64,000 nt of DNA, taken from a virus (taxonomy: Duplodnaviria; Caudoviricetes). This document shows, piece after piece, positions 6,867 to 34,688 of this stretch; position 1 is the stretch's first letter, and each line of letters opens with the position of its first letter. The position numbers and the translations under genes are program-made. The stretch covers positions 1 through 64,000 of the IMG/VR virus record IMGVR_UViG_3300030708_002923; one strand, 5' to 3'. The notes below the pieces were generated by a model, which saw nothing but the letters and a program-made list of their open reading frames with translations, was not told where the DNA came from and did no database searches.

Positions 6867-7831
6867 TAGTTCCACTTCGCCATATTCTTGTTCTTGAACG
6901 TAGAGAAATGAAACGGATCGTCTAACTCCGACCACTCTTCCCAATCTGCACACAGAAACAAGTCATCTATCTCATCGACCGTCACACGGACCCAACGAAC
7001 CTGATCCTTGGACGCTACAAACGACAACGGCCTTGGTATGGATTCAGGATCTTCAAGATACTGTATACGGCAACGCTTCCAAAACTCCTGAGTGTTTGGA
7101 TGAGTCCTGCGAGTATGAAGCCTTAAATATGTACCCAACTCAGGCGTTGGAACCTTTTGTATCGCAGCATGGTGCTTTCTGATGGTTTTCTTGAAGTTGT
7201 GCCATTTGCCTTTGCCCACCACAGGCCCATGCTTGAAAATCCAGAAGTGCAGAAACTTAAACGTTGACCACGCCCATCTTGGCTTATCTGAAGGTGTAGT
7301 CTTGTACTGCTTGTACGGATCTGCAGTAATACGCTCTTGGTCGCGATGGTTGTCCAGGTAAACCGCATATGCGTACCTAAACAGCGTCCTTGATGTGCCT
7401 TTTGACCCACGCAAAACAGCAAGTCTGCCATCTGGATCAGATACGGCGATCTGATTGCCATCCTTCGTTATTGACCACTTACCTGTCTCAAACGATTGGC
7501 TTCTTGCCTCTTCAGCCAACTCCCAATCGATATCACCCGACTGATAGCCGGTGTTGTAGTAAGCGGTTTCTACAGGACGCAAAATATCCAAAAACCTTTC
7601 TGACAGGCCGTCATATTTGACCACTACGTCATTTGGCTTCAAATGGCCCTGCGACTTTTCCGGTATCACCGTCAGTCGAACAAACTTTACCTTGGCCTCG
7701 TCAGTAGGCACCGGCAACGCTTCTAAGTACTCGTCTATTTCAGACTCACTGGTAACGGGAACGCCAAGCACACCCTCAATACCAACAGCAGGAAACCGAC
7801 GAGCCAAACATACATAATCATTCATAATCAC
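6866..7831 (-). CDS. Hypothetical protein (321 aa)
   Basis: Long ORF with CCTGGAG RBS and its own promoter; no family recognised. Confidence 0.75.
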   Translation of the reverse strand: MIMNDYVCLARRFPAVGIEGVLGVPVTSESEIDEYLEALPVPTDEAKVKFVRLTVIPEKSQGHLKPNDVVVKYDGLSERFLDILRPVETAYYNTGYQSGDIDWELAEEARSQSFETGKWSITKDGNQIAVSDPDGRLAVLRGSKGTSRTLFRYAYAVYLDNHRDQERITADPYKQYKTTPSDKPRWAWSTFKFLHFWIFKHGPVVGKGKWHNFKKTIRKHHAAIQKVPTPELGTYLRLHTRRTHPNTQEFWKRCRIQYLEDPESIPRPLSFVASKDQVRWVRVTVDEIDDLFLCADWEEWSELDDPFHFSTFKNKNMAKWN

Positions 7832-7842
7832 TCCAGGCTACG

Positions 7843-7871
7843 ACTCTATATTTGTCAAAAGCGCCCGTCAA
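7843..7871 (-). promoter_or_regulatory. sigma70-type promoter
   Basis: TTGACG-N17-TAGAGT upstream of 6866..7831. Confidence 0.6.
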
Positions 7872-8066
7872 CTCTTTGTTTCTAACAAAATCCCCAGGGG
7901 GGCGCTCCGCGCCCCCCGCGCAAACGCCGCAAGCACCACCACCGCCACAGGGGGGCAGAGCCTCGCACACGCGCCCGATTCCGCGCACGGTTCCACCTAT
8001 GGCACCCGGTCAGGGTCCACAAATCCCCGAAAAATCCAGGGGGAAGGCGGCATATCGCGCAGTCGG

Positions 8067-8444
8067 TCACACGGTCCACCCCCACGCGCGCACGGTAGAC
8101 AACGCGCCCCGCATAGCACCACGGGCAACCCCGGCCACGCTACGCGCTACCCCCTGAACACCACGGGCCACGCTACGCGCAACGCGCGCAACGCTACGCG
8201 ATACACGCGCAACAGTAGAACCCACGGGGGGGGTCACAACCTCGGCCACAACTGGAACCTCCACCAAGGGGGCAACCTCGGCCACGCCCACAAGGGGGGC
8301 GGCTATGGTTACCACGCGGGGGGCTCCAGGGATGCGAAGCTGTGGAACCTTCGCCCACGCAACGAACCGACCCGTAGCAGAGCACCGCGCACGCTGGCGG
8401 GGCGCGTCTGCTGAGAGGTTCGAGAATGCGAGTGCGAAAGTCAT
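8067..8444 (-). CDS. Putative leaderless 125-aa protein with VAR-repeat amphipathic C-terminus
   Basis: MTFALAFSNLSADAPRQRARCSATGRF..VARVSRSVARVARSVARGVQGVARSVAGVARG; ATG lies 7 nt after the -10 box. Confidence 0.5.
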   Translation of the reverse strand: MTFALAFSNLSADAPRQRARCSATGRFVAWAKVPQLRIPGAPRVVTIAAPLVGVAEVAPLVEVPVVAEVVTPPVGSTVARVSRSVARVARSVARGVQGVARSVAGVARGAMRGALSTVRAWGWTV

Positions 8445-8450
8445 GACCAT

Positions 8451-8479
8451 ACTATACCCGACCTTGACAGACCTTGCAA
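8451..8479 (-). promoter_or_regulatory. sigma70-type promoter (leftward)
   Basis: TTGCAA-N17-TATAGT. Confidence 0.7.
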
Positions 8480-8508
8480 GGGGGGTGACGTACAAAAAAC
8501 GAAGAAAG

Positions 8509-8601
8509 TTTTTTCTTCAATGATTCTAAGCACTTACAAGATATCATGCATTTTTTTTAAAAAAAGTTTGGTTTTTTTTCTTCAATGATTTCAAGCACTT
8601 A
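8509..8601. repeat. Two 28-bp direct repeats resembling IHF sites
   Basis: TTTTTTCTTCAATGATTCTAAGCACTTA (8509-8536) and TTTTTTCTTCAATGATTTCAAGCACTTA (8574-8601); near the WATCAANNNNTTR consensus with an upstream A/T tract. Confidence 0.55.
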
Positions 8602-8628
8602 GGTGCCCACATTAGAGACGTCCATCGT

Positions 8629-8657
8629 TTGCCATACCTGACAGAGTATGTTCTATT
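8629..8657 (+). promoter_or_regulatory. Possible promoter for the structured RNA
   Basis: TTGCCA-N17-TCTATT; the -10 match is weak. Confidence 0.3.
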
Positions 8658-8663
8658 GTTTGT

Positions 8664-9627
8664 GTGGCGGGGGAAACACCCCGCAAAAAAATCACTACCG
8701 ACCGGGGCGGACACTGCCAACGCCTAAGAACTAAAGCGGTCCCTTGAATCTTTGAAATCACGAATAAGAATAGACGGGCAACCTGGAAACAGATTGACCC
8801 TGGTACACGGCGCGGCAAAGACGAACCCCGCGCAATCGGCCACCGCTGGAATGCAGTAAGTGCGACAGTAGGAGAGACGACCCCCCATTGCATACATCAA
8901 TAGGGGGGCGCCATCCGAAAGGATTGACACCCCGAAGCCCCGAACCCTATGGAATCCGCCACGGCGGGCAGGGTGAGGCGAGCAGGACAGGCCAACCGAT
9001 TGAACCCCGTGTAAGTTACCCCCCGGCACGTTTCACGGACGGCGGGGGAGTGCCAAGACCCCAACACCTGCGGGCGAGCGCCACTAAGGCTTTGAGCAAC
9101 ATCAAGGCCCCGTCTATAAATCCACCGCGACGAATCGCAGCGCTTACAACGTGTCGAGGTGGTAGAAATGCGATGCGGCGAGCAGTAGCGAGGCCGAGGG
9201 ATTAGTAACCCCGAAGACTACTGCAAGGTATCCCCCCACCTTACACGGGGGGACTGTGAGGCCGTGGCCCGCAGTGAACACCGCCCCGGCGAGCGTATCG
9301 CCGCCCCTTTCTACATAGCCGCCGCAAGGGATTACCCTGGATAATACGGCGGGCAATACCGAAAACCCCTACAACGGTCGCACCTTGCTGAGGGCTTCAA
9401 TCCAAGAGGGATAAAAACGCTTCCCTGTTCTATTGATAGGTAGGGGTCGGGCTCGTACCTCGGCCCCGTTTCATTACATAGCCGCCGCCGAGGCTCCCCC
9501 TATGATTCAGAGAGGGGTTGAGCCCCGGCGGGCGGTGGACCTTTCCCGGTTCGCTGTCCTGCGATTCGTCGCTGTTGACATGCCAACTACCGCAAATGTA
9601 GGATAGCCCGGTTTTAACGGGGCTTTT
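8664..9627 (+). ncRNA. Candidate large structured non-coding RNA (~960 nt), family not recognised
   Basis: No credible ORF; at least 7 long-range helices of 8-14 bp, many local hairpins, GNRA loops on the + strand, and a terminator-like 3' hairpin. Confidence 0.7.
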
Positions 9628-9712
9628 CGATGTATTTTGTACCGATAGGGCGGGGGGCCTACCCCTGATTTTTACACCTTGTCCCGCTGTTGGTCCGGTT
9701 GCCATGTCAACA
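9573..9712. repeat. 15-bp inverted repeat made of two GTTG-N6-CAAC palindromes
   Basis: TGTTGACATGCCAAC (9573-9587) versus GTTGCCATGTCAACA (9698-9712), 14/15 complementary. Confidence 0.6.
9605..9627 (+). terminator. Terminator-like hairpin at the 3' end of the RNA
   Basis: AGCCCG..CGGGGCT stem followed by TTTT. Confidence 0.45.
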
Positions 9713-9867
9713 CCAGCACGGAATAAGCCGCTTCAAAGGCTGCATATCACGTAGCCGATGGGTATTTTCATTCGGGGGCTTGAGAGGTGGCGCGGACCAA
9801 CCCCGCATAAAATCCCCGCCATATTCGCCTGTACTGGTACGAATGACCGAACCTTACCCCCCTTGTA

Positions 9868-10100
9868 CCCTAACCTCTGCCCTAACCTATCGACGAGGTT
9901 AGGGCACCCGATAGCCCGCCTTCAAGGTGCCTTATCGGTTGATGCCCTAACCTACCCTAACCTCTGGCCCAACATTTTGAACCTCTCGGATTTTCTCGAC
10001 TGTCTCGTTCTTCTCTCTCTACTATATTGTATTACCTACCTACCTATTCTGTCTAATAGGTTAGGGTAGGTTAGGGCAATAGAGAATAAACGAGGTTCAA
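9868..10100. repeat. Iteron-like CCCTAACCT/AGGTTAGGG cluster with nested inverted repeats
   Basis: 7 copies of the 9-mer; perfect 21-bp inverted repeat 9943-9963/10058-10078; 11-bp hairpin 9878-9888/9896-9906; TTGAACCTC/GAGGTTCAA 9977-9985/10092-10100. Confidence 0.75.
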
Positions 10101-10156
10101 CCGGGCTTTTCAACCTGCCCCAACGTAGGGGCACCACTGCCCCAACGGGTAGGCAC

Positions 10157-10185
10157 TTGACACCCTTTACCCCTTCCCTTAGACT
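10157..10185 (+). promoter_or_regulatory. sigma70-type early promoter
   Basis: TTGACA-N17-TAGACT, 37 nt before the first early ATG. Confidence 0.75.
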
Positions 10186-10221
10186 GACATACCAGCCAAA
10201 CCCTAACAGACTGGAGATATC

Positions 10222-10551
10222 ATGCCTGTACTCAAACGATACAAGCCGCACGGCGGCTATCCCTTGGCGCCTGGAGCCGGATGGGCGACTGTCCGAAAAC
10301 TGACCAACAGAGAGGCGGTCATGATTCTGAATGCCTCCGAGACTATGGCTGAGCGTGGCCCTGATGGATTGCGCGACACCATCGCGGGCAAGTGCTTTGT
10401 AGCTTTGAATCGATTCGGTCGCCCTAAAGCTGGCGAGTGGAACCAACCCTGTCCCGCCGGTACTCGTGCCATCTACCACCACGGTGGTGGTGGTGGCGTG
10501 TGGTCCGGTTTCTATATCATCGAAAAACTAAAAACCCTGGAGCAATCATGA
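10222..10551 (+). CDS. Early hypothetical protein
   Basis: CTGGAG RBS; ATGA-coupled to the next gene. Confidence 0.65.
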   Translation: MPVLKRYKPHGGYPLAPGAGWATVRKLTNREAVMILNASETMAERGPDGLRDTIAGKCFVALNRFGRPKAGEWNQPCPAGTRAIYHHGGGGGVWSGFYIIEKLKTLEQS

Positions 10552-11108
10552 TGAACAAAAAGACACGCACAATCGATGGCACAACCTATACCGTGACCTA
10601 TGGATTCGATACCAAGTTTGCCGCGAAGCATAATCAACGGCCGTACTTCAGCATCACCCTTGACGTAACCGAGGGGAAACGATGGGTAAGCGGTGGCGCG
10701 GATTCTGATACCATCGCGGAGGTATTCCCCGAACTTGCCAACGTTCTACAATGGCACCTGGCTGACCACTCCGCGACACCTATACACTACGTGGCCAACA
10801 CCATGTACTGGCGGGACCACTTCCCAACGCAGGCCGAGGTACAAGTATCTGAGGATGAGCCAACGCAAACGGTTACCATGGCTCCAAAGTATGAGGACCG
10901 GTACAACTACGGACCCGAGAGACTCGCGGCTCACTTGAAGTCTTGCATGGCTTGGGGCGCGTTACCGTCAGAGCGTGACTGGACGGGCGACAGCCCCGAG
11001 ACGTGGGACCGTGACACGCTCCGTGTGTACCTCGTGACACGTCAAGCGGCCTTGATGGATAACATGCGCGCGGACCTTGCGGCCGTAGGCGTGACCATTC
11101 CCAACTAA
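10548..11108 (+). CDS. Conserved-type phage hypothetical protein
   Basis: PYFSIT..FPEL..WHL..PIHYVANTMY pattern; CCCTGGAGCAATCATG start. Confidence 0.7.
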   Translation: MMNKKTRTIDGTTYTVTYGFDTKFAAKHNQRPYFSITLDVTEGKRWVSGGADSDTIAEVFPELANVLQWHLADHSATPIHYVANTMYWRDHFPTQAEVQVSEDEPTQTVTMAPKYEDRYNYGPERLAAHLKSCMAWGALPSERDWTGDSPETWDRDTLRVYLVTRQAALMDNMRADLAAVGVTIPN

Positions 11109-11144
11109 TCAACCGGGGCCCCGTGCCCCACTGGAGCAAACAAA

Positions 11145-11435
11145 ATGCCAATAGACCAATCATTCAAGTCCTATTCCTCTGCGCTTGCAGAATATGTAAA
11201 CCATCCTGACTACTACAAGGGCCGATGGGCTGTACGCTGTACCGTAATCGCAACGGGCCAAGTCGGTAGGCGGGTATTCGACAGTCACTCGGATGCGACA
11301 GCATTTGTAGATGACTTGGTGGCGCGGGGGGTATGCACTCCCGGTGATGGCAAGTACCGCATTCGTTTCGAGCGCGTTGACCCCTTGCCTGGATTCCCTA
11401 AAGCCCTGGAGCAATCATGCAACGCATCAAGTTAG
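11145..11435 (+). CDS. Early hypothetical protein
   Basis: Starts right after repeat copy 11106. Confidence 0.65.
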   Translation: MPIDQSFKSYSSALAEYVNHPDYYKGRWAVRCTVIATGQVGRRVFDSHSDATAFVDDLVARGVCTPGDGKYRIRFERVDPLPGFPKALEQSCNASS

Positions 11436-11647
11436 AAAACCTCGAAAACGTAGTAGACCGTATCAATTCGGCCGGTGTCGGCACCTACATGGTCGACCAT
11501 ACAAGCGGCGGCGTCCGCCTATCCATGCTGAACGAAACCGGCGGAAGGCGTGCCATCACGCCAATAGGAACCAAGCGCGAAACCTACTACCGCATGCACG
11601 CCTTTCTGGATGGCGTTGAGGCTGCCCAACACGGGGGGCAATCATGA
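11417..11647 (+). CDS. Early hypothetical protein
   Basis: CCCTGGAGCAATCATG start; ATGA coupling downstream. Confidence 0.65.
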   Translation: MQRIKLENLENVVDRINSAGVGTYMVDHTSGGVRLSMLNETGGRRAITPIGTKRETYYRMHAFLDGVEAAQHGGQS

Positions 11648-11967
11648 GCGCCATCATCGACACCATTAACCTGAGCGCCTGTAGCGATTGTCTTCTATTC
11701 ATCGCCAACGGTGACGAGCCAGAAGGTGACGAAACCCTACCCGCTCGCATCCAATCGGAATGGACCGTATCCGACGATACATGTGACCACCATGGCGCCG
11801 TCCACGGTTCCCTATGGTGGGACATCGTGTACGGTGGCGAGCATGAAAGCGAGGCCGACGAGCACAGCGGTTCCCTCGGTTTCTCATGGTCATCGTGCGA
11901 GTGTTGCGGTTCAAGTCTCGGAGGCGACCGCTACCCCTTGACCGCTATCCTCAGACGTAAACCCTGA
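11644..11967 (+). CDS. Early hypothetical protein with CxxC motifs
   Basis: CSDC..FSWSSCECCGSSLGGDRY. Confidence 0.7.
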   Translation: MSAIIDTINLSACSDCLLFIANGDEPEGDETLPARIQSEWTVSDDTCDHHGAVHGSLWWDIVYGGEHESEADEHSGSLGFSWSSCECCGSSLGGDRYPLTAILRRKP

Positions 11968-11979
11968 ACCCCTGGAGCA

Positions 11980-12852
11980 ATGATGTACCCCGAAACGTTC
12001 TGGAATAAACCCGTGCCCGCCAAGTACCGCAAGGCGCTGGAGGGCTTGGGGCTACCCCTTGACATAAGCCGGCGCGACCTATTCCGGTTCGTTGCCTTCA
12101 CCGATTCAGGCAAGCCCCGAAACATTCTCGGGTCTTCCTCTAAAGTAGAGAAGGGCGAAGGCGCTGGTGTTCTCACCGCAATCCTGTACCTGTCGCCCGG
12201 TCGTGAGGCCGGTATCAATATGTGCCCAATGGCGGCAGGCTGTGAAGCTGGATGCCTTGGGACTACCTCGCGCCGGATGACATGGCCTACCCATAAGAAA
12301 GCGCGGGTATGCAAAACGGTATGGCTGATGCTATTCCGTGACCACTTCCTACGGCGCCTGTCTTGGGAGATAATCGGCCACGCTATGACGGCGGAAGCCA
12401 TGGATATGAAACCCGCTATCCGCCTGAACGGGTCGAGTGATGTACTGTGGGAAAACTACAACGTACCTCAGAGCCATCCAGAGGTGCAGTTCTACGACTA
12501 TACGAAGCTGCCAGCGAAAGCCCGCGCAGGCGTGCCGGATAACTACCACCTAACGTTCAGCCTATGCGAGCGCCCCGAGAGCAAGGGTCGAGCCCTGGAG
12601 TGGCTCAACGCAGGCCGAAACGTGGCCATGGTCGTGGGCGGTGAGTCTACAACCGACAGGCCAAGCGTAATGCTGAAGGCGGCAAAGGCGGCGGCAGCTA
12701 CTATCATCGAGCGCGGAACCTTCGAGGGCTTCCCCGCTGTAAGCGGTGACAATGATGACATTCGATTCGATGACCCACCCGGCGCCTGGGTCGTGCTCTA
12801 TGCCAAGAGTGGCGCCCTGACAGACAGTACTGGATTCGTCCAGCGATTCTAA
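11980..12852 (+). CDS. GP88-like phage protein
   Basis: LYLSP..NMCP..GC..GCL..IRLNGSSDV.WE..VQFYDYTK..NYHLTFS..DDIRFDD..GFV motifs. Confidence 0.75.
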   Translation: MMYPETFWNKPVPAKYRKALEGLGLPLDISRRDLFRFVAFTDSGKPRNILGSSSKVEKGEGAGVLTAILYLSPGREAGINMCPMAAGCEAGCLGTTSRRMTWPTHKKARVCKTVWLMLFRDHFLRRLSWEIIGHAMTAEAMDMKPAIRLNGSSDVLWENYNVPQSHPEVQFYDYTKLPAKARAGVPDNYHLTFSLCERPESKGRALEWLNAGRNVAMVVGGESTTDRPSVMLKAAKAAAATIIERGTFEGFPAVSGDNDDIRFDDPPGAWVVLYAKSGALTDSTGFVQRF

Positions 12853-12884
12853 CAATGAGGGGCTTCGGCCCCACTGGAGAGACA

Positions 12885-12980
12885 ATGGGAACACTTGAAG
12901 ACCGATACCAAAACTATGTTCAATGCATGATTGACCTTGGTCAACCATACGTGGACTTTGACACGTGGCTCAACCGATAG
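12885..12980 (+). CDS. 31-aa small protein (not in ORF track)
   Basis: MGTLEDRYQNYVQCMIDLGQPYVDFDTWLNR, exactly bounded by two junction repeats. Confidence 0.6.
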   Translation: MGTLEDRYQNYVQCMIDLGQPYVDFDTWLNR

Positions 12981-12993
12981 CCCTGGAGCAAAC

Positions 12994-13215
12994 ATGAGAC
13001 TGTCCTATAGATTCTTCGATACCCGACAGGAAGCACGGAAGTTCTTTCAGTCCAATAACCTCACACTGGAGGCGTTCTATCACACTTGGCACGGCGAGTG
13101 GTTGATTTGCTATCCAGACCCGCACGCCATCGGGTGTGAGCACCTGCCCGAACTTCAACCCGGTTGCGATGAAATCCTTTGGGAAATGGACCTAATCGTA
13201 GAGTGTGAAGGCTAA
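12994..13215 (+). CDS. Early hypothetical protein
   Basis: CCCTGGAGCAAACATG start. Confidence 0.6.
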   Translation: MRLSYRFFDTRQEARKFFQSNNLTLEAFYHTWHGEWLICYPDPHAIGCEHLPELQPGCDEILWEMDLIVECEG

Positions 13216-13252
13216 CTAATCAACCGGGGCTTCGGCCCCACTGGAGCAAACA

Positions 13253-13612
13253 ATGAGCAAACGAGCAAAGACATATCATGAGATAGAAGACAACCATTGT
13301 ATCTTGAAGATACGACAGGAACGCGAGGAACGGGACGAATACAACAAGTCAATCGGTAAATCTCAACGGGGCTTTGAACTTCACAGCCCGAGACTTCGGG
13401 CCAATGCGAGCCTTAGAACGGTGGTGAAACATGCGCGAGACGCGGCCGACTTTGCGCTTTACCGTTATCGAGTGGAGCGCGATTGGTGGCACACACTCCG
13501 AGATACAAGCCAGGTCAGAGAGTATCAAAACAAAGGGCATGAAGTGGAAATACTTCGAGACAGGTGGCACACACTCGAAGAAATCGCGCAGCACCTTGAA
13601 CGACTCACTTAA
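13253..13612 (+). CDS. Early hypothetical protein with internal RDRWHTL-like repeat
   Basis: Bounded by repeat copies 13217 and 13610. Confidence 0.65.
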   Translation: MSKRAKTYHEIEDNHCILKIRQEREERDEYNKSIGKSQRGFELHSPRLRANASLRTVVKHARDAADFALYRYRVERDWWHTLRDTSQVREYQNKGHEVEILRDRWHTLEEIAQHLERLT

Positions 13613-13644
13613 TCAACCGGGGCTTCGGCCCCACTGGATACCCC

Positions 13645-13848
13645 ATGCACAAAAAGAAATACCGCGTCATCTACCGATGCCGCAGCACCCATTTACCAAG
13701 GTATCAATACGACTGTGGCGGTTACGTTAGCCGAGGTGTTCTCCAACGTAGCCGTATCGTGTCGGCTGCTGACGCTGCCCAAGCCGTCCTGAAGGCTCGC
13801 ACGTTCGATGATTACATCGAACTTGTGACTGTCTACGAGTCTGCCTAA
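13645..13848 (+). CDS. Early hypothetical protein
   Basis: Bounded by repeat copies 13610 and 13851. Confidence 0.6.
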   Translation: MHKKKYRVIYRCRSTHLPRYQYDCGGYVSRGVLQRSRIVSAADAAQAVLKARTFDDYIELVTVYESA

Positions 13849-13885
13849 CCTAATCAACCGGGGCTTCGGCCCCACTGGAGCAAAC

Positions 13886-14158
13886 ATGCAAACGAATGAA
13901 AACGCATTTATCGAACGTTGTTTCTGTATGTCACCGAAGCATCGAGACTGGAACCAAGCATGGGAAGCGATTGCGCGCCATGAATCCAACCGAGAAATGA
14001 ACGATAAAATGACCGCAGCCTGCCCGTTTAGCGGCGAGTCATGGCAATACATGGGCAGCTACAACAAGCCACAAGGGAACGTCCACACGTTCCGCCATCG
14101 CCGTCACCCTGGAGTGAACGGTGAGCGCGTCAACGTGCGCGTGTTCATCCCCAACTAA
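13886..14158 (+). CDS. Early hypothetical protein
   Basis: Bounded by repeats; CPFSGESWQYMGS motif. Confidence 0.65.
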   Translation: MQTNENAFIERCFCMSPKHRDWNQAWEAIARHESNREMNDKMTAACPFSGESWQYMGSYNKPQGNVHTFRHRRHPGVNGERVNVRVFIPN

Positions 14159-14182
14159 ACCGATAGCCCTGGAGCAATCATC

Positions 14183-14374
14183 ATGACACTACAAGAGGAA
14201 CTGGCAGCGTTGAAGCTGGCCGACATAAAAGACAAGCTACTGCGCTACTTGCTCAAAGACGTGGAAGCGAACTTCGAGCACTTGACGAATGAGGAACGCA
14301 CCATCATCGGTGACCCTGAAACATTCAGCGCGCTGTTGGAATCCATTGGGATTGACCAGCACGGAACCCGATAG
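14183..14374 (+). CDS. Early hypothetical protein
   Basis: CCCTGGAGCAA RBS. Confidence 0.6.
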   Translation: MTLQEELAALKLADIKDKLLRYLLKDVEANFEHLTNEERTIIGDPETFSALLESIGIDQHGTR

Positions 14375-14410
14375 CATACCCGACACACACAAACAAACAG
14401 GAGGTGAGTG

Positions 14411-14620
14411 ATGCCTACATACCAAATACACTGCACAGCAGCGATTGAAATATACGCAACCGTCGATGCCGATAGTATAGAGCATGCCAAGCGCATCGCT
14501 TCAAACATTACGATTGTAAACTACGCCAATGAAACGGTAGGCGCCGAGACAGACGACGGAGAGATAACTGAAGTCATCGGCCATGAGGTAGCTGGTATTA
14601 CAATCACAGGAGGTGAGTAA
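14411..14620 (+). CDS. Early hypothetical protein
   Basis: Junction-bounded, ends GGE. Confidence 0.65.
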   Translation: MPTYQIHCTAAIEIYATVDADSIEHAKRIASNITIVNYANETVGAETDDGEITEVIGHEVAGITITGGE

Positions 14621-15039
14621 TGAGCCCTACCGCAAGATTCAAAGAGTCCATCAACGGTAGCGATGTAGTCATCGACCTACGGCCTGGACAGACCTTGACC
14701 CACGTAAAGTATGAGCCTACCGATGAGGGATGGGACCGCACTGTACACACGTGGCATTACGATGCCGATAGCAAAGTCATCACAGTCAACTACTTCAATG
14801 AAGGCCGCGACTGTGATGGCTACATGTCAACCCACTACGAACGCGAATGCTCGGTTGACCGGCTACGCTCTCGAACAGTGAAGCATCCGACTGGTGGACG
14901 GTGGGAGCCATTCACCTTCGACGATGGCACCACTGCCCACGAGTGGGTGACCACTTGGGAAGAACAGACAGGCTGGCCTGACTGGAGAGAGGTCGGCTAC
15001 GAGTACCATGACCAGAACGCCAGAGCGATGGGCTACTAA
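14620..15039 (+). CDS. Early hypothetical protein
   Basis: TAATG coupled; EGRDCDG motif. Confidence 0.65.
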   Translation: MSPTARFKESINGSDVVIDLRPGQTLTHVKYEPTDEGWDRTVHTWHYDADSKVITVNYFNEGRDCDGYMSTHYERECSVDRLRSRTVKHPTGGRWEPFTFDDGTTAHEWVTTWEEQTGWPDWREVGYEYHDQNARAMGY

Positions 15040-15060
15040 ACTTTACCTATGCTGACACAC

Positions 15061-15090
15061 TTGACAGCCAATACCAAACAGGTGTATAAC
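15061..15090 (+). promoter_or_regulatory. sigma70-type promoter for ardC
   Basis: TTGACA-N18-TATAAC. Confidence 0.65.
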
Positions 15091-15120
15091 CCTAATGAGC
15101 AAACAAACCGGAGATTCAAC

Positions 15121-16074
15121 ATGGCTAAAAAACCAACATTCAACACGCACCAAGTCATCACCGATATTATCTTGGCTTCGATGGAGAAGGGCGTACAGCC
15201 CTGGCGCAAAGGCTGGACCGCATTGGGTGGCGCCTTGAGCCGTCCCGTCAGTGGAGGTACAGGCAATCCATACAACGGTATCAACGTGATTCTGCTATGG
15301 GCGGCACAGTCCGAGCGTGGCTACCACTCCGATACTTGGCACACGTACAAGGGTGCCCAAGGCAAGGGCGGTCAGGTACGCAAGGGTGAGAAGGGTACAC
15401 GCATCGTCAAGTGGTTGTTCCTGCCATTCAAAGAGAACGGACAGGTAAAGCTTGATGCCAACGGTGAGCCCGTGACCTTCGCAAAGATGAGGCTGTACAC
15501 AGTCTTCAACGCTTGCCAGATTGATTGGGCAGAGGGTAGCGAGCATGCCCCTGGTCCTGCTCCAACAGTGGAGGAACACGATGGTTCTCAGGCCGGTGAC
15601 GAGTACGAAGATGCCAAAGTCATTCTGGATTCGTGGGCCGATGAGGTCACAATCAGACATGGCGGCGACTCAGCATTCTATCGACCATCGGATGACTTGA
15701 TTCAACTGCCCACCTTTGAACAGTTTGACAGTGAAGCCGAATACTTCTCGACTGCCTTTCATGAGGCGATTCACAGCACGGGCCACAGTACCCGCCTGAA
15801 CCGCTTCAAAAAGGAACGCAAGGGTAGCTACAAGCAAGCCTACGCATTCGAGGAACTGGTAGCAGAGTTGGGTGCAGCGTTCTTGTGTGCGGATGCTGGT
15901 ATCAACCAGCCAGAAGAACCACGCGAGGACCACGCGCAGTACTTGGCCCACTGGCTCGAAGTACTCAAGGGTGACCCGAAGGCCATCGTGTCTGCGGCAT
16001 CCAAGGCAGAGAAGGCAGCGAAGCTTGTAGTGGCAAAGGCTGGCGAGGCCGGTCAACAGCAGGCAGCGAAGTAA
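15121..16074 (+). CDS. ardC: ArdC-like antirestriction/ssDNA-binding protein (ArdC-N plus zincin domain)
   Basis: PWRKGW..YNGINVILLW..W.TY..GGQVRKGEKG..VFNA..AFYRPSDD.IQLP..FHEAIHSTGH..RLNR..YAFEELVAELGAAFL..YLAHWL; GGAG RBS before ATG 15121. Confidence 0.9.
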   Translation: MAKKPTFNTHQVITDIILASMEKGVQPWRKGWTALGGALSRPVSGGTGNPYNGINVILLWAAQSERGYHSDTWHTYKGAQGKGGQVRKGEKGTRIVKWLFLPFKENGQVKLDANGEPVTFAKMRLYTVFNACQIDWAEGSEHAPGPAPTVEEHDGSQAGDEYEDAKVILDSWADEVTIRHGGDSAFYRPSDDLIQLPTFEQFDSEAEYFSTAFHEAIHSTGHSTRLNRFKKERKGSYKQAYAFEELVAELGAAFLCADAGINQPEEPREDHAQYLAHWLEVLKGDPKAIVSAASKAEKAAKLVVAKAGEAGQQQAAK

Positions 16075-16144
16075 ACCGGGAGAGGGAAGCAGTTTGCGGT
16101 CTGCTTATCAAAACCGCCTACCTTTCAACCATCATGGAGAACAA

Positions 16145-16378
16145 ATGATGATTCGATACCTAATCGTTGACACGGAAATAGACCCCAATGAAACAGGCTC
16201 TCAGGGCATGTCTGCGGCATTCGTTCGCAACAGCAAAGACAGAGTCATGCACACAACTAACATTGAAAAGGCTCGCCGATGGCGCGACAGTCGCAATGAC
16301 GGCATCGACGAGGGAGAGCCTGGTTTTTCGATTCTCGAAATAAACACAGAGACGGGCGCACAACGCCTTGTTTCATAA
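16145..16378 (+). CDS. Early hypothetical protein
   Basis: GGAG RBS. Confidence 0.55.
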   Translation: MMIRYLIVDTEIDPNETGSQGMSAAFVRNSKDRVMHTTNIEKARRWRDSRNDGIDEGEPGFSILEINTETGAQRLVS

Positions 16379-16395
16379 CAAACAACAGGAGGTGA

Positions 16396-16680
16396 ATGAT
16401 GAACATGCCAGAAGGATTGAAGTACTGGACCGCTGACGAGGTAGCCGAATGCCTTGATGGAATCGGGCCTGACCTATATCGCAAGCTGTGGGAGATTCTT
16501 GCTGAAGCCAAGAACCCTACACCACTTGGGGGCGACGGTTCCAATGGAACAGTCGAGACACCAGATGGTCGGCTGGACGAGGACAACGACGACAAGGCCC
16601 CACACTGGTGGGTCAAGCTTACGCCAGCCGAGCAGACAACTATCGCATCAGCATACATCGCTGAACGTGGAGGTGAGTGA
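16396..16680 (+). CDS. Early hypothetical protein
   Basis: Junction-bounded, ends GGE. Confidence 0.65.
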   Translation: MMNMPEGLKYWTADEVAECLDGIGPDLYRKLWEILAEAKNPTPLGGDGSNGTVETPDGRLDEDNDDKAPHWWVKLTPAEQTTIASAYIAERGGE

Positions 16681-17000
16681 TGCCTAAGTATACAGCAGGA
16701 CCATGGGAAGCGTCGGAAGGCTACCCCTCGGACATCTGGCACGTTGACATGCCGAGTCGAGGATATTCCGTCGTCGTATCCCGAGCAGAAGAAGATTGGG
16801 ACGTGGCTGTCGAGGAAGTGCAGGCCAACGCACACCTGATCGCGGCGGCACCTGAGTTGCTGGATGCTTTGATCATCACACTCGATCTCGCCGTGGGTCA
16901 CGCCTGTGACTCTCGGGGAATCACACCAGCAGAGTGCGCAGACTGGGAGTGGGTGAAGCAGGCTCGCAAACTCATCGCGAAAGCGAAAGGAGGTGAGTGA
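16680..17000 (+). CDS. Common phage protein (TxGPW..ANAxLIAAAPELL family)
   Basis: YTAGPW..ANAHLIAAAPELLDAL. Confidence 0.75.
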   Translation: MPKYTAGPWEASEGYPSDIWHVDMPSRGYSVVVSRAEEDWDVAVEEVQANAHLIAAAPELLDALIITLDLAVGHACDSRGITPAECADWEWVKQARKLIAKAKGGE

Positions 17001-17030
17001 TGCCGAGAAGATGGCAAGGAAGGTGAAGTA

Positions 17031-17207
17031 ATGGAAAACAATGAAGCAAACCGATTGAAGTTAGCCGAGGCCATTTGGGAAACGCTAAGTCTCGACGACT
17101 TACATGAGCAGTTCATCTTCCAAAGTCTCGAACGATACAAAACAGATCCCGACGCATTCGAGGAAGATTGTGCGGCCATGGATCTCGACAATGATGGAGG
17201 TGAGTGA
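17031..17207 (+). CDS. 58-aa acidic protein (not in ORF track)
   Basis: MENNEANRLKLAEAIWETLSLDDL..DLDNDGGE, ends in the junction motif. Confidence 0.6.
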   Translation: MENNEANRLKLAEAIWETLSLDDLHEQFIFQSLERYKTDPDAFEEDCAAMDLDNDGGE

Positions 17208-17695
17208 TGGGTAGATGGCAAGGACCAGAACACCAATACTCAGAGGCTCGACGCGCCTACGAACAACGTGAAGAATATCGCTATGAGCGATGGAAGGAAA
17301 GGAATCCAGAATGTCATAAGTGCGGAGAGCGTGAGCACGAAGACAAGATGACCGACATGTATGGGGATGACTGGTGTACTCATTGTGTCAGTGAGCACGC
17401 ATTCGAGTGTGACGTGTGCGGCAAGACACACGCTAACGAGTACCTGACCGACGTAGACTTAACGATGGGCGAGTACGTATGCGACGAGTGCGACGAGAAG
17501 TGTGCAGCCGACAAGACGCGCCATCATGCTCCAGTAGAGATCCCGATCGGTCACATGGAATATGTACTATGGACTATGGAGAACGCTGCGAAGGACGAAC
17601 CATATGAAGGTACTCAACCGGGCAACGCAAAGAAATGGTTGAGAGAAAGCATTGACCGGATCAAACAATCAATGCCCAAAGAGGACGGTGAGTGA
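17207..17695 (+). CDS. Multi-CxxC zinc-binding protein
   Basis: CHKC, CTHC, CDVC, CDEC. Confidence 0.7.
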   Translation: MGRWQGPEHQYSEARRAYEQREEYRYERWKERNPECHKCGEREHEDKMTDMYGDDWCTHCVSEHAFECDVCGKTHANEYLTDVDLTMGEYVCDECDEKCAADKTRHHAPVEIPIGHMEYVLWTMENAAKDEPYEGTQPGNAKKWLRESIDRIKQSMPKEDGE

Positions 17696-17913
17696 TGCAA
17701 CGGTTCGATGAAGTGATGGTCCGGCGAAGTGTCGGGTGGGGCTCCGGTTGGGAGTATGAATACGGCTACGTAAAGTTTCTATACTCAGAGACGCCTTGGG
17801 TGAGGGTGAGAGTTTTCAAGAGCAAGCGTTTTGGACCCTCATCTTCGACGTTCCATGTCGATAGTGTATTTCCTATCTACGGTCCTATTCAAGCGCATGC
17901 AGGAGGTGAGTGA
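17695..17913 (+). CDS. Early hypothetical protein
   Basis: Junction-bounded, ends GGE. Confidence 0.6.
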   Translation: MQRFDEVMVRRSVGWGSGWEYEYGYVKFLYSETPWVRVRVFKSKRFGPSSSTFHVDSVFPIYGPIQAHAGGE

Positions 17914-18401
17914 TGAACATATTCGTTTTACACCCTATGCCTGACTTGGCTGCGCGTATGCAGTGTGACCGGCATGTAGTCAAGATGACCCTTGAGACTG
18001 CACAGATGCTCTCTACGGCCATCAATGAGTTGGGTGGGCAGGCATCCTACAAGTCTGCCCACGTCAACCATCCGTGCTCTGTGTGGGCACGGGAAACGCT
18101 CGGCAACTTCGTATGGTTGTGGGAGCACGGAATCAACCTCGCCCAAGAGTACACCGCAAGGTACGGGAAGGTACACAAGTCGGAAGTAGTCATCCGTGAC
18201 TGCTACCACACAATGATGCAACGTCAGCTACTCAAGAGCCGAAGGCTGACACCACACCCACTGTGTATGCCTGACGAGTACAAAACAGACTGTGTGTATG
18301 AATCGTATCGAAACTTCTACATAGGTGAGAAGTCACGATTCGCACGATGGAACAAAACAACTGAGTCACCGTCATGGTGGCCGCAACAAACAAGGACATG
18401 A
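17913..18401 (+). CDS. Pyrimidine-dimer DNA glycosylase-like protein (Pyr_excise/DenV superfamily)
   Basis: MNIFVL..CDRHVVKM.LETAQMLST..YK.AH.NHPCSVWAR..EYTARYGKVHKS..MPDEYK..YRNFY. Confidence 0.75.
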   Translation: MNIFVLHPMPDLAARMQCDRHVVKMTLETAQMLSTAINELGGQASYKSAHVNHPCSVWARETLGNFVWLWEHGINLAQEYTARYGKVHKSEVVIRDCYHTMMQRQLLKSRRLTPHPLCMPDEYKTDCVYESYRNFYIGEKSRFARWNKTTESPSWWPQQTRT

Positions 18402-18404
18402 GTG

Positions 18405-18665
18405 ATGATTATCTATGTACTGGACGACGGAGAGACGTGGACCCTGAGTGAGCCCACGGCGGTAACGATCACGGATGAGCAACTGACGCGCATTGAAGGC
18501 GGTGAGAAGTTGTACCACGTCGTACCCGATTGGGATGAGCAACAGGGTGACGATGCCGATGACTTTTTCATTCGGGCTGGCATCGCTGCCCGAGAAGCAC
18601 TGAAGGAAATCAAGAGAGACTACACAAACAGCATCGTAGATGCTCAGAACCAGGGAGATGAGTAA
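18405..18665 (+). CDS. Early hypothetical protein
   Basis: Variant junction at both ends. Confidence 0.6.
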   Translation: MIIYVLDDGETWTLSEPTAVTITDEQLTRIEGGEKLYHVVPDWDEQQGDDADDFFIRAGIAAREALKEIKRDYTNSIVDAQNQGDE

Positions 18666-19036
18666 TGCCCTATAAATATGTATGGCCAGAGGAAGCATTC
18701 GAGGTACGCATCCAGTGTACTGAGGAACAAATACAACAGCATTGTGATGCGGCGCCTGAGAACGACCGTCGAGACTTCGATGATCGTGGTGGGCTTCAGA
18801 TACCGGTGTACCATGTATACAAAAACGATTCGATTGATGAGCGTTTGACTTATTGGTATACGCTCGACAAAAACGAGTGCGATACCTACGAGTTTGATGT
18901 TCGCGATATTCCGACATGGTGGAACTGTTCTTCAGAAAGTCCAGAGAATCATCAAGACTGCATCCAAGAAGCATTGAACGATGGCGTCATTGAGTTTGAT
19001 GGATTGCTACTGAAGATACACAAGATGGCTGAGTGA
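18665..19036 (+). CDS. Early hypothetical protein
   Basis: TAATG coupled. Confidence 0.65.
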   Translation: MPYKYVWPEEAFEVRIQCTEEQIQQHCDAAPENDRRDFDDRGGLQIPVYHVYKNDSIDERLTYWYTLDKNECDTYEFDVRDIPTWWNCSSESPENHQDCIQEALNDGVIEFDGLLLKIHKMAE

Positions 19037-19112
19037 TCCCCATGTCGGACCTATTGTCCTGGCTCCGTACTCTCTAATGAGGCACTATCGCTTCACCAAC
19101 ACAGGAACCCAA

Positions 19113-19337
19113 ATGACTGACGATGAACGAATAGCACTGATCAACGACACAACAACCAGTGACTCTCTAAACTACGCGCTGATACGGGCCGAACGAAACT
19201 CACTAGACCACAGCGCGACAATCTACGACAACTACCCTGTCGGTGCCACCAACATCACAGCCACCGACTGGCAACGCCACTGGACTGAGTCTGATGAAAT
19301 GTTCGATATGATGTGGAACGGTACAACGAACACTTAA
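19113..19337 (+). CDS. Early hypothetical protein
   Basis: ACACAGGA leader; start uncertain. Confidence 0.5.
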   Translation: MTDDERIALINDTTTSDSLNYALIRAERNSLDHSATIYDNYPVGATNITATDWQRHWTESDEMFDMMWNGTTNT

Positions 19338-19527
19338 CAACATTCAACCGAGTGACGTCGAGGACGCTCCACAACACTCATCGCGAGGTGCATCATGTTC
19401 TAAGTCATAGTGCCGGTAAGGGTGAGGGGCCTGGATTACTCACCCAAGTAGACCTTTTATTGTGACCCATGTCCAAACGGAACCAAGCGCCGGTTCTGTC
19501 CACCGAGCCTACAACACAGGAGTATGT

Positions 19528-19740
19528 ATGACTCGCTTACCAAACAGATCAGCCTTTCCAAGTTTCGACTTGGCCCTTGGCCCGCACGACCCCTCCAAAC
19601 TTCAGCACCGTCACCCGTTTACAGAGTGGGTGAAGCCGGTGCCAGAGACAATCCCCCCAATGAATGAACCACAACAAAGTGAATGGATTCGCCTGAACGA
19701 TAGCGTGGTTCGCAGAGCAAACACAGGAGAGCAAAAATGA
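19528..19740 (+). CDS. Early hypothetical protein
   Basis: AACACAGGAG RBS. Confidence 0.5.
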   Translation: MTRLPNRSAFPSFDLALGPHDPSKLQHRHPFTEWVKPVPETIPPMNEPQQSEWIRLNDSVVRRANTGEQK

Positions 19741-19937
19741 CTGAGCAAGAAATCAAACAACTAAAGAGCATGCGGAGACTATTAGAGCAGTGGTCTAAAC
19801 CACAACCCACGGTTGCGATCGGCAACGCAGAGAACGTTCAATCGTTCCCTGAAGAATCTCGTATTGCGTTTCAGCAGCAGCTTGAAGCAATCAACAAGGT
19901 TCTCGAAAGGGCAGAGGCAGAGGACAGCCAAGCATGA
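19737..19937 (+). CDS. Early hypothetical protein
   Basis: AACACAGGAG RBS, ATGA coupling. Confidence 0.6.
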   Translation: MTEQEIKQLKSMRRLLEQWSKPQPTVAIGNAENVQSFPEESRIAFQQQLEAINKVLERAEAEDSQA

Positions 19938-20146
19938 CACCAAGCAAAGAGACACCCATTGGAACACCACTGAAGTCTACCGTGAAGGGATGGGGTAAAG
20001 GTCCATTCGTTTACATGGGCAACGGCAGAGGCGGACAGACAATCATAGTCGCAACGAAGAAGGATGGATTGCAGCAAGCGCGCGCATCTGACTTCTCCAT
20101 CGATTCGATTGCCGCCAAAGCCATTGGTGACTTTATTATCAAGTAG
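19934..20146 (+). CDS. Early hypothetical protein
   Basis: ATGA coupling. Confidence 0.6.
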   Translation: MTPSKETPIGTPLKSTVKGWGKGPFVYMGNGRGGQTIIVATKKDGLQQARASDFSIDSIAAKAIGDFIIK

Positions 20147-20149
20147 CGG

Positions 20150-20178
20150 TTGACTATGGCTTTACTTGCCTGTAAGGT
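20150..20178 (+). promoter_or_regulatory. Possible sigma70-type promoter
   Basis: TTGACT-N17-TAAGGT. Confidence 0.45.
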
Positions 20179-20213
20179 CATACCTACCCTACCTCAACAC
20201 ACTGGAGCAGAAG

Positions 20214-20513
20214 ATGAACAAAGCAGAGCAGTTTAGATTACCGGTGAGCCCGCGCAACATTTCAGTTGAGTTGGTTCGAGAGGTTGAAGACGAAGATACA
20301 GGCGAGGTTGTCGCGGAACACATCATCGAGGTATTTGGTCGGTTCCTTCCTGCGGAGCCCAATGTGGGTCTTGGTCCCCACATTGAGGTTCTGTCAGCGC
20401 ACCGACAAGACAGGGACGTTCGCGTTCCTGTAGAGTTAGAAGATTGGGAGGTTGACACGTTGCTCGACCTTTATCAAGAGCAGTTGCGGACAGAACTTGA
20501 CCGTGACATTTGA
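20214..20513 (+). CDS. Early hypothetical acidic protein
   Basis: CACTGGAGCA RBS. Confidence 0.65.
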   Translation: MNKAEQFRLPVSPRNISVELVREVEDEDTGEVVAEHIIEVFGRFLPAEPNVGLGPHIEVLSAHRQDRDVRVPVELEDWEVDTLLDLYQEQLRTELDRDI

Positions 20514-20550
20514 TTTTTTATGGCATACTTGACGAACACAGGAGAACAAA

Positions 20551-20838
20551 ATGAGCACCAATCAATGTAATAAATGCTACAACCCCATCGGAAACAACAT
20601 CACAGCCCTTCACAACATTCAAGTGATGAAGGCCGTCATGCAAGATTCGATGGTGCGTGCGGACGAGGCCGAGGACAGCGCGCATAAGGTGATGATTCTG
20701 GAATCAACAATCAACCACATTTTAGAAAACATCGAGAGAGATTTTGGTGAAGCGTGGTCGATTCATAAACAACAAATGAAGGAGTTGATGGAGTCTCTGA
20801 GAGATCAGGGAATCATCAGCGATGTAGGAGGTGAGTGA
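20551..20838 (+). CDS. Early hypothetical protein
   Basis: ACACAGGAG RBS; ends GGE. Confidence 0.65.
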   Translation: MSTNQCNKCYNPIGNNITALHNIQVMKAVMQDSMVRADEAEDSAHKVMILESTINHILENIERDFGEAWSIHKQQMKELMESLRDQGIISDVGGE

Positions 20839-27499: not shown

Positions 27500-27538
27500 A
27501 TCGTGATACCATACAGTCAAGCAAAGGAAAAACCAACA

Positions 27539-34466: not shown

Positions 34467-34688
34467 TCATTTCTTAGCAGGCTTCTTGGCTGCAGGCTTC
34501 TTGGCTGCAGGCTTCTTGGCTGCAGGCTTCTTAGCTGAAGATTTCAAAGCTTTGATTTCCAAATCTTTTTCTTTTACTTTATCTTCAAGTAATGAAATAG
34601 CCTTGAAAAGGTATTCTACAGCCTTTCGCTTGTTACCAAACTTAAGTTGCATTTCAATTTTAGCTTTCTTAATGTACTCTTCAATCAT
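34467..34688 (-). CDS. Small basic protein with histone H1-like (AKKPA)n tail
   Basis: SAKKPAAKKPAAKKPAAKKPAKK. Confidence 0.65.
   Translation of the reverse strand: MIEEYIKKAKIEMQLKFGNKRKAVEYLFKAISLLEDKVKEKDLEIKALKSSAKKPAAKKPAAKKPAAKKPAKK
34477..34536. repeat. 15-bp tandem repeat x4 (coding)
   Basis: GCAGGCTTCTTGGCT x3 plus one variant. Confidence 0.9.

Follow-up and report, generated by a model that had tools for sequence, protein, structure and literature searches.

We analyzed the first 64,000 nucleotides (nt; positions 1 to 64,000, hereafter the window) of IMG/VR virus record IMGVR_UViG_3300030708_002923, which make up most of a 73,021-bp virus genome rated 100% complete by CheckV. On the plus strand, an array of twelve early genes contains five direct copies of an intercistronic module of the form stop-AATCAACC-GGGGC(UUCG)GCCCC-ACUGGAG-N6-AUG, in which a hairpin precedes the Shine-Dalgarno (SD) sequence of the following gene. 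Direct reading of 10800-14500 and a repeat finder (family D1) placed the copies at 11106, 12849/12850, 13216/13217, 13609/13610 and 13850/13851, each between a stop codon and the next ATG, as the original prediction from the sequence had stated. The open reading frames (ORFs) ending and starting around them are 10548-11108/11145, 11980-12852/12885, 12994-13215/13253, 13253-13612/13645 and 13645-13848/13886. The build is the same throughout: a stop codon, a short A/C-rich linker, a GGGGC/GCCCC stem, ACTGGA(G/T), 6-9 nt and ATG. The linker reads TAATCAACC in four copies, while the copy at 12850 deviates upstream (TAACAATGA). A 29-nt core composed of TAATCAACC, GGGGCTTCGGCCCC and ACTGGA is identical in the copies at 13217, 13610 and 13851, again in agreement with the earlier claim. 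Four of the five hairpins belong to the UUCG class (GGGG-CUUCGG-CCCC), and the fifth has a 5-nt loop. The 14-mer hairpin GGGGCTTCGGCCCC, with up to two mismatches allowed, was found five times in the window against 0.19 matches expected by shuffling, and GGGGC-N3-6-GCCCC hairpins occur in the entire 73-kb genome only at 10128-13873.

The individual joints, all on the plus strand, differ in detail. Joint 1 (11106..11147; detected by reading, repeat finder and hairpin scan) reads TAA-TCAACC-GGGGC(CCCGU)GCCCC-ACUGGAG-N9-AUG and thus retains the GGGGC/GCCCC stem around a variant 5-nt loop (CCCGT); 27 nt of it recur unchanged between unrelated genes in relative L032, and the same loop variant is present in relative G002. 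Joint 2 (12850..12887; reading and repeat finder), TAA-CAATGA-GGGGC(UUCG)GCCCC-ACUGGAG-N6-AUG, follows the GP88-like gene. Joint 3 (13217..13255; reading, repeat finder and fold) is the canonical copy, and its predicted RNA fold has a hairpin of about -11 kcal/mol and, in the centroid structure, an unpaired SD. In joint 4 (13610..13647; reading, repeat finder and fold) the SD is weakened to GGAU, and joint 5 (13851..13888; reading and repeat finder) is the same as joint 3 over 37 nt, counted from 13850 and 13216.

A U-tract is absent after all five copies, the 3′ flank always being ACUGGAG or ACUGGAU, and a terminator scan of the window copies reported only the reverse strand of one of them. 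The module, a GC hairpin lacking a U-rich tract, was therefore rejected as an intrinsic (Rho-independent) terminator, in line with the original prediction that it is not one. A promoter scan found no site in or adjoining any of the five copies, and the position of the hairpin 2 nt from the SD leaves no room for one. A sixth GGGGC...GCCCC hairpin, with a 6-nt loop, lies at 10128-10143. As it precedes the -35 box of the early promoter by 14 nt, it is outside the early mRNA; it may end or insulate the upstream non-coding transcript.

Ribosome sites without a hairpin

A second kind of joint joins early genes with no hairpin between them. A 20-nt sequence, AACCGATAGCCCTGGAGCAA, occurs twice in the window, at 12972 and 14158, exactly where the original prediction had noted it. 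The first copy of this joint, which we call J-type, reads AACCGA-UAG-CCCUGGAGCAAAC-AUG (12972..12996, plus strand; reading and repeat finder), and the second lies at 14158..14185 on the same strand (reading and repeat finder, family D13). GGAG follows the stop codon by 4 nt, and both flanks (TCAACCG and CTGGAGCAAACA) are common to the hairpin joint. The J-type joint resembles a hairpin module whose GGGCTTCG core has been swapped for ATA. It also carries the stop codon of the upstream gene (CGA-TAG), and where this TAG is the stop in use, as in the 31-aa ORF at 12885-12980, the protein ends in Asn-Arg. Three to five J-type copies per array were found in the close relatives L191 and L177.

The ribosome-site core CCCTGGAGCAA, with at most one mismatch, was matched 10 times against 1.1 expected, and nine of these matches lie on the plus strand within 10.5-15.2 kb. 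Four further plus-strand sites of hairpin-less type were recorded. The early ribosome site CCCTGGAGCAATCATG occurs at 10535..10550 and, inside the end of the upstream gene, at 11404..11419 (repeat finder family D5); an overlapping stop/start junction, GGGGGGCAATCATGA, lies at 11631..11647; and the ribosome site of the GP88-like gene lies at 11970..11985. The first gene after the promoter likewise has no hairpin in the window and in relatives L028 and L029.

Beyond the array, at about 14.4 kb, the ribosome-site "dialect" shifts abruptly from (C)CCTGGAGCAAnCATG to GGAGGTGAGTGATG; over 14395-20840, stop and start codons overlap and the G+C content drops. We take GGAGGTGAGTGATG to be the 8-nt complement of the 16S rRNA 3′ end, assuming a sequence of the E. 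coli type.

The hairpin is conserved as RNA structure

About 15 relatives were fetched by using as protein anchors RusA and an anti-restriction protein (here termed ArdC-like), which are encoded on either side of the array. Each carries one to seven modules of the same build, confined in the complete relatives to the early region. The curated set comprises 44 modules, taken from the window, from about 10 relatives in the lineage and from a few contigs unrelated to it. Nine stem types are represented (e.g., GGGGC, GGGGGC, GGGGGGC, GGGGCC, GGGGCA/UGCCCC and GGGGGG), among them fully G/C-inverted stems (GCCCCCC/GGGGGGC), and all pair perfectly; since perfect stems were partly a criterion of selection, evidence can be drawn from the covariation and the loop statistics alone. 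In a MAFFT alignment of whole modules, inverted stems and stems of unequal length fall out of register, and for this reason base pairs were counted on a trimmed 14-nt alignment instead of being used to build a covariance model. Among the eight distinct 14-nt cores, all five pairs have changed on both sides.

UNCG, GNRA and CUUG are the three classic families of extra-stable RNA tetraloops. Among the 32 four-base loops read on the mRNA strand, 30 belong to them (UNCG 18, GNRA 11, CUUG 1), as against none of the 32 when the complementary strand is read. Modules L019_1406 (UUCG) and L035_16247 (GCAA) differ in the entire loop but have near-identical 3′ linkers, and their flanking genes are non-homologous. 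Even within single genomes the loops differ, with UUCG, GCAA, CUUG and 3- and 5-nt loops side by side, which points to selection on stability and not on a surface recognized by a protein. The position of the hairpin is also constrained: in 30 of 42 modules, 11-15 nt separate its 3′ end from the AUG, in 28 modules the SD core begins 2-3 nt past the stem, and the SD-to-AUG spacing is normal (6-9 nt). The linkers flanking the hairpin are A/C-rich. Fold z-scores of 60-nt contexts were not significant, shuffles of such G/C-run sequence folding as well, and were left out of the evidence. Judged from covarying stems and from stable loops on the sense strand only, the hairpin is under selection at the RNA level, which bears out the suggestion of structural selection first made from joint 1.

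Genes turn over between the joints

The genes flanking the array are well conserved in the relatives, with protein identities of 60-90% for RusA and 56-76% for the ArdC-like protein. By contrast, almost none of the window's twelve array genes are present there, and the few shared ones stand at different positions. The GP88 gene, sixth in the window, comes directly behind the promoter as the first gene in L028 and L029. The junction at its 3′ end contains a hairpin in the window and in L029, where stem and loop are different, and none in L028. A cassette-like array had been predicted, and this hyperplastic region, of which relatives share so little, has that character. Phages L013-L018, collected by means of GP88, proved not to be members of the lineage and were rejected.

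Comparison of individual modules located two limits of homology at or close to the hairpin. Between L035 and G002, about 93% nucleotide identity (manual count) extends through gene, linker and hairpin and ends at the hairpin's 3′ edge, and between L019 and G002 homology starts about 10 nt 5′ of the hairpin. A metagenome scan then supplied close relatives at 88-97% nucleotide identity, L191 (Tara), L177, L179 and L180, and the comparison of related genomes that had been suggested as a check revealed gain, loss and reordering of genes. In L191, gene 11644 stands after gene 10222 and before gene 10548; in L177, GP88 directly follows the promoter; and several window genes are replaced by unrelated DNA. 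By manual tally over these close relatives, 21 of 22 ends of homology blocks lie within about 15 nt of a joint. The 38-nt hairpin module of joint 5 is 100% conserved in L191, where the DNA on both sides has no match in the window.

Two crossovers were resolved to the base. In L191 (junction A), the switch of parent falls inside the microhomology GCAATCATGA, with the ribosome site at 10535..10550 on one side and the overlapping junction at 11631..11647 on the other. In L177 (junction B), it falls within CTGGAG, one side being the ribosome site of the GP88-like gene at 11970..11985. The proposal that the repeats are recombination joints was thus supported in part: breakpoints and both crossovers do coincide with joints, but the crossovers lie in the ribosome-site part of hairpin-less joints and not in the hairpin. 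It is therefore the shared ribosome-site sequence that is the demonstrated recombination substrate, the hairpin itself not being demonstrably recombinogenic.

Related layouts in other phages

A broad scan of viral contigs for AACC-GGGGC-NNNN-GCCCC-A, with the stem fixed and the loop free, detected the same layout in more than 115 contigs. We compared 73 distinct contexts, 44 with a YNCG loop and 29 with another loop. A stop codon 6-7 nt upstream was present in 28 of the 44 YNCG-loop contexts versus 2 of the 29 others (Fisher 7e-7), and a downstream SD plus start codon in 36 of 44 versus 9 of 29 (Fisher 2e-5). YNCG contexts also share an upstream consensus, TAA-A-Y-C, which the search did not force and which is wholly absent from the other-loop contexts. 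A T-tract follows in only 1 of 82 scan matches.

The exact 20-mer consisting of the hairpin plus ACTGGA was found in eight further viral contigs, and each continues with G, 6-8 nt and a start codon; one of them is identical to the window module at 36 of 38 nt (comparison by eye). The 20-mer contigs tested against the window phage had no credible protein homology to it, the lone match being a helicase with 26% identity (E = 2e-10). The exact 21-mer that takes in the ribosome site, found eight times in viral contigs and each time ahead of a start codon, was matched only twice in 596 billion bases of bacterial genomes, both times out of context. These two matches, on Planctomycetota metagenome-assembled contigs of 68-70% GC, have no start codon after the motif and were taken as chance occurrences that are uninformative on the host. 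Among cultured phages, Acinetobacter phage Barton (L174, MW176032, 39763-39810) carries TAATCAAATCA-GGGGCTTCGGCCCC-ACTGGAG-N8-ATG between hypothetical genes 51 and 52. Together with the more than 115 contigs, this occurrence indicates that the layout is a widespread phage feature and not peculiar to the window genome. In Pectobacterium phage phiTE (L175, 129538-129575), a T-run follows a hairpin that is nearly identical and has the same CTAACTAATCAA leader, and the element is annotated as a terminator; a single building block may serve both as terminator and as ribosome-site joint.

Promoter, flanking genes and non-coding region

The window belongs to an uncultured marine phage of about 73 kb; its lineage is placed in the ocean because the contig names of close relatives are TARA scaffolds. 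The phage encodes an SU10-like adaptor protein of podovirus type. Genes run leftward from 7831 and rightward from 10222, flanking a 2.4-kb GC-rich non-coding region. The promoter scan identified a sigma-70-like early promoter, TTGACA-17-TAGACT, at 10157..10185 on the plus strand (10 of 12 matches), which precedes the first early gene and is kept in L177 through the -10 box and leader. Good plus-strand sites were found only at 9575 and 10157 and none comparable to the latter inside the array, and promoter 10157 probably drives the entire array as a single polycistronic mRNA.

No Pfam family was assigned to nine of 10 tested array proteins, the tenth being the GP88-like protein (gene 11980-12852); the view that the array carries host-takeover or anti-defense genes thus gained no support. 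Directly downstream, the ArdC-like gene (15049..16074, plus strand; PHROG 7245 annotation, 1.6e-85) forms a conserved anchor next to the variable array, and is followed by genes for a primase-helicase, a DnaB-like helicase, YqaJ and RecT; RusA is encoded upstream of the array on the opposite strand. The YqaJ-like exonuclease (27503-28453, plus strand; PF09588, 1.9e-18) and the RecT annealase (28450-29268, plus strand; PF03837, 4.8e-28), both named in the original prediction, are real Pfam matches. Megablast of the array against cultured phages gave no match, a protein search with the primase-helicase returned only distant matches below 40% identity and no close cultured relative, and an Rfam search over 7700-14500 found nothing credible.

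Several other features of the genome were recorded. No convincing ORF, Rfam match or tRNA was found in the non-coding stretch (7830-10220). Relatives conserve its sequence at 70-92% nucleotide identity, over 8271-8473, 8749-9310 and 9472-9556 in viral-contig relatives and over 7899-9310 and 9472-10551 in L191. A hairpin resembling a tRNA T-arm, GGTTCGAATCC, lies within the corresponding non-coding region of relative G002 (L056, reverse strand, about 2525-2560), and a tRNA search at the equivalent window position found none. GATC is missing from a 9.4-kb run (7449-16837) that ends just past the ArdC-like gene, with none observed versus about 29 expected in 9022-16837 and 329 in the entire 73-kb genome; this distribution suggests that the DNA entering the cell first avoids a GATC-directed host nuclease. 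On the minus strand, an ORF that runs off the start of the window (2-5086, more than 1695 aa) matches ART-PolyVal, the ADP-ribosyltransferase of polyvalent proteins, in three stretches (3.6e-41), and its product is probably an injected polyvalent protein. On the late-gene (minus-strand) side, tandem repeats of 18 nt (49867-49977) and 15 nt (34477-34551) are present, the former inside the gene for a 1265-aa protein with a peptidase domain (47429-51226).

Discussion

We lean toward interpreting the module as a promoterless intercistronic joint resembling the promoter-early stem-loops (PeSLs) of T4-type phages (Arbiol et al., 2010, PMC2839356; Comeau et al., 2014, PMC4122927), in which the hairpin would act as an RNA insulator or stabilizer and the shared ribosome-site sequence as recombination microhomology. 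The early operon would be transcribed by the host RNA polymerase from promoter 10157, with co-transcription of the array, as we infer it, carrying two kinds of standard joint on one mRNA. In that mRNA, a maximally stable GC stem with a tetraloop would occupy the untranslated stretch from a stop codon to the following SD, the stop usually lying 6-7 nt upstream of the hairpin (broad scan) and the SD usually 2 nt downstream. The resulting folded, nuclease-resistant spacer of about 14-16 nt would lie immediately ahead of the SD, just past the terminating ribosome's footprint, and would remain folded between the terminating and the initiating ribosome. Such a spacer could insulate the downstream ribosome site, uncoupling it from upstream sequence and ribosome traffic, and could stop exonucleolytic or endonucleolytic decay from crossing the junction. 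Every cassette would then have an equal, context-independent translation start and be expressible at any position. The hairpin-less joints, in which the stop codon lies 0-4 nt from the SD/GGAG or the genes overlap, are probably the translationally coupled alternative. At the DNA level, the 6-38 nt of identity between joints, above all in the ribosome-site part (C)CTGGAGCAAnCATG, would permit exchange, loss and reordering of cassettes between co-infecting relatives by short-homology recombination, for which the phage's own RecT and YqaJ are plausible agents.

A number of points count against this interpretation. Insulation and stabilization are read from architecture and precedent, and a 5-bp stem would be a small barrier to PNPase or RNase R. 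The 100% pairing of the curated stems is circular. The greater likeness of modules within than between genomes (0.62 versus 0.55, permutation p = 2e-4) speaks for recombination, but the excess is modest and could reflect base composition. The hairpin is dispensable, as judged from the GP88 junction, which has it in two phages and lacks it in L028. Breakpoints at gene borders are expected in any phage mosaic that survives, whatever the mechanism, and both base-resolved crossovers fall at joints without a hairpin. Lastly, the host may have a form of termination that needs no U-tract.

Of the competing explanations, a processing signal is in our view unlikely, if likelier than the others. A host or phage endoribonuclease would cut beside the hairpin and leave monocistronic mRNAs that begin or end with a protective hairpin, the candidates being RNase E or G in the A-rich UAAAYC linker, RNase P on a minihelix-like hairpin with a 3′ A-Y-C-A flank, or another phage enzyme. 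Conservation of the upstream TAA-A-Y-C-AACC and of the 3′ A-(C/U)-C-(A) flank in 44 independent contexts would fit such an enzyme, as would the location of the hairpin directly at the 5′ edge of the ribosome site, where a 5′-terminal protective stem would need to be. There is precedent, too, in that a 5′ CUUCGG hairpin stabilizes T4 gene 32 mRNA and a GUUCGG hairpin coincides with a primer-extension stop in phage 7-11 (PMC8948821). However, the linkers of the lineage are C/A-rich and not A/U-rich, ACU or AUU outnumber ACCA as the 3′ flank, a stem of 5-7 bp is far below the usual substrates of RNase P or RNase III, the variation of loops within one genome speaks against a sequence-specific enzyme, and no gene for a nuclease was identified. 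A transcription attenuator strikes us as still less probable. The hairpins would be weak, U-tract-independent terminators or pause sites that produce a falling gradient of expression along the early operon, much like the stem-loop half of PeSLs, whose polyG/polyC stem-loops cut reporter expression as strongly as the rrnB T1 terminator (PMC2839356). The phiTE hairpin, with its CTAACTAATCAA leader, is indeed a canonical terminator with a T-run. Against an attenuator, all five window copies and all but 1 of the 82 scan matches lack such a tract. No downstream promoter could restart transcription, so that the distal genes would be silenced if all five copies within 3 kb terminated efficiently, and termination leaves the fixed distance of 11-15 nt to the AUG unexplained.

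We give little credence to a translational operator, through which a later phage protein would bind the SD-adjacent hairpin and shut off the early class together, in the manner of T4 RegA or RNA-phage coat proteins, or a RegB-like nuclease would act on the uniform GGAG sites. The hairpin does abut the SD of many early genes, and the early class has a uniform weak GGAG site that gives way to GGAGGTGAGTGATG in genes after 14.4 kb; but half of the early genes have no hairpin, and loops that differ within single genomes on stems that can be inverted conserve stability alone and offer no recognition surface. An element acting at the DNA level, whether an N4-type hairpin promoter for a virion RNA polymerase, a T7-type promoter with +1 at GGGG or an attC- or REP-like (repetitive extragenic palindromic) site for a recombinase or transposase, is the explanation we hold least probable of all. 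It could draw on the giant virion-associated proteins of no assigned function (2568 aa), on the conserved TAAAYCAACC next to GGGG and on the cassette-like arrays. Yet the loop families are RNA-stable and oriented with the mRNA, the gap to the SD varies between 2 and 16 nt, such that with a +1 about 8 nt past the stem many transcripts would lose their SD, attC sites are far longer than the module, and a host-type promoter already precedes the array. No PF00940 polymerase was detected in the window genome or in eight other module-bearing genomes with a working T7 control (1e-109), and the T7-type promoter was rejected on this ground. The 2568-aa protein matches no sequence in the PDB, the N4 polymerase included, and no polymerase Pfam, a result that leaves room for a very divergent polymerase.

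Other identities were considered and rejected on specific grounds. Genome size (73 kb), strand layout and a giant virion protein had hinted at an N4-like phage; this identity was dropped for want of a polymerase signal, the adaptor being SU10-like and the 2-5086 protein being ART-PolyVal. N4 hairpin promoters form on the template strand from a stem of 5-7 bp and a 3-nt loop, and are accompanied by a virion RNA polymerase gene, whereas loops here are mostly of 4 nt and of RNA-stable families on the sense strand. The stem of only 5-7 bp does not suit an RNase III site, and a lambda-type boxB/nut site was discarded given loops that vary within a genome and five copies in 3 kb. Bypassing of the gene-60 type was excluded by the fact that every downstream ORF has its own SD and AUG.

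The reach of the layout allows a broader reading, which we put forward as speculative and rather doubtful: UAA-AYCAACC-GGGGC(UNCG)GCCCC-A-SD-AUG would be a portable unit of "punctuation" shared across unrelated phages, akin to an integron that needs no dedicated enzyme. With the RNA hairpin, an inserted ORF would be expressible in whatever context it landed, and RecT-type annealases could use the joint's common sequence to transfer promoterless early-gene cassettes between co-infecting, otherwise unrelated phages.

Early regions harbor the fastest-evolving host-takeover and counter-defense genes of phages, and how such genes are swapped without breaking their expression is only partly understood. 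To our knowledge, PeSLs are the sole worked example, limited to T4-like phages. The window locus points to a simpler, promoterless solution in an unrelated marine lineage, in which a standard joint would standardize translation and probably mRNA stability at the RNA level and mark the sites of cassette exchange at the DNA level. These ideas can be tested at the bench, because the layout recurs widely in viral metagenomes and a cultured Acinetobacter phage carries it. The module consensus could also aid the annotation of early-gene arrays, and the module could serve as a compact natural insulator for synthetic operons.

Several known systems share parts of this design. The split ribosome sites of T4 genes 38 and 25 likewise contain a very stable tetraloop hairpin within the translation-start region, but there it lies between SD and AUG and joins them, whereas the window hairpin is 5′ of an SD at normal distance from the AUG, and a split (hairpin-bridged) initiation region was accordingly rejected. 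Integron attC arrays resemble the early array in having ordered promoterless ORFs, one upstream promoter and structured repeats as exchange points. They differ in that the joints here are 25-40 nt long (hairpin 14-16 nt) as opposed to 57-141 nt and have no R/L boxes, and in that exchange resembles short-homology and not site-specific recombination; no integrase was found among the annotated or scanned window proteins, the scan covering part of the ORFs. REP/BIME elements and intercistronic stabilizer hairpins of bacterial operons, reportedly described by Newbury et al. in 1987, are also GC-rich hairpins without U-tracts located after stop codons inside operons. REP-type hairpins are thought to block 3′-5′ exonucleases and so give mRNA segments differential stability. 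Unlike the window module, REPs are longer (about 35 nt), imperfect palindromes with a GTAG head, are bacterial and linked to RAYT transposases, and are not fused to the ribosome site of the next gene.

Closer in form are the extra-stable C(UUCG)G hairpins of phage intercistronic regions, (X)n-CUUCGG-(Y)n, for which mRNA stabilization is among the proposed roles (Tuerk et al., 1988, as summarized in PMC8948821). The window hairpins share their form, their intergenic position and their stability. As far as that summary describes the earlier hairpins, the window hairpin differs in being embedded in a longer composite that is itself conserved (stop, TAAAYCAACC-like linker, hairpin, A, SD and AUG), in being interchangeable with GNRA and CUUG loops and in being tied to cassette turnover.

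PeSLs are defined by sigma-70 -35/-10 boxes with an AT-rich upstream region plus a stem-loop between the stop codon and the SD/ATG (PMC2839356). The window module has no such promoter and no AT-rich UP region, and is therefore not a PeSL in the strict sense; the interpretation in the original prediction is to this extent only partly supported. The module is a joint inside one operon and not a terminator-promoter unit, its hairpin is fused 2 nt from the SD, and its carrier is a marine phage of about 73 kb with an SU10-like, podovirus-type adaptor instead of a T4-like myovirus. What the two have in common is nevertheless considerable: short modules that are repeated between the genes of a hyperplastic, ORFan-rich early region; the order of upstream stop codon, polyG/polyC stem-loop (here about -11 kcal/mol), SD and start codon; and the gain, loss and replacement of genes between close relatives with breakpoints at the modules.

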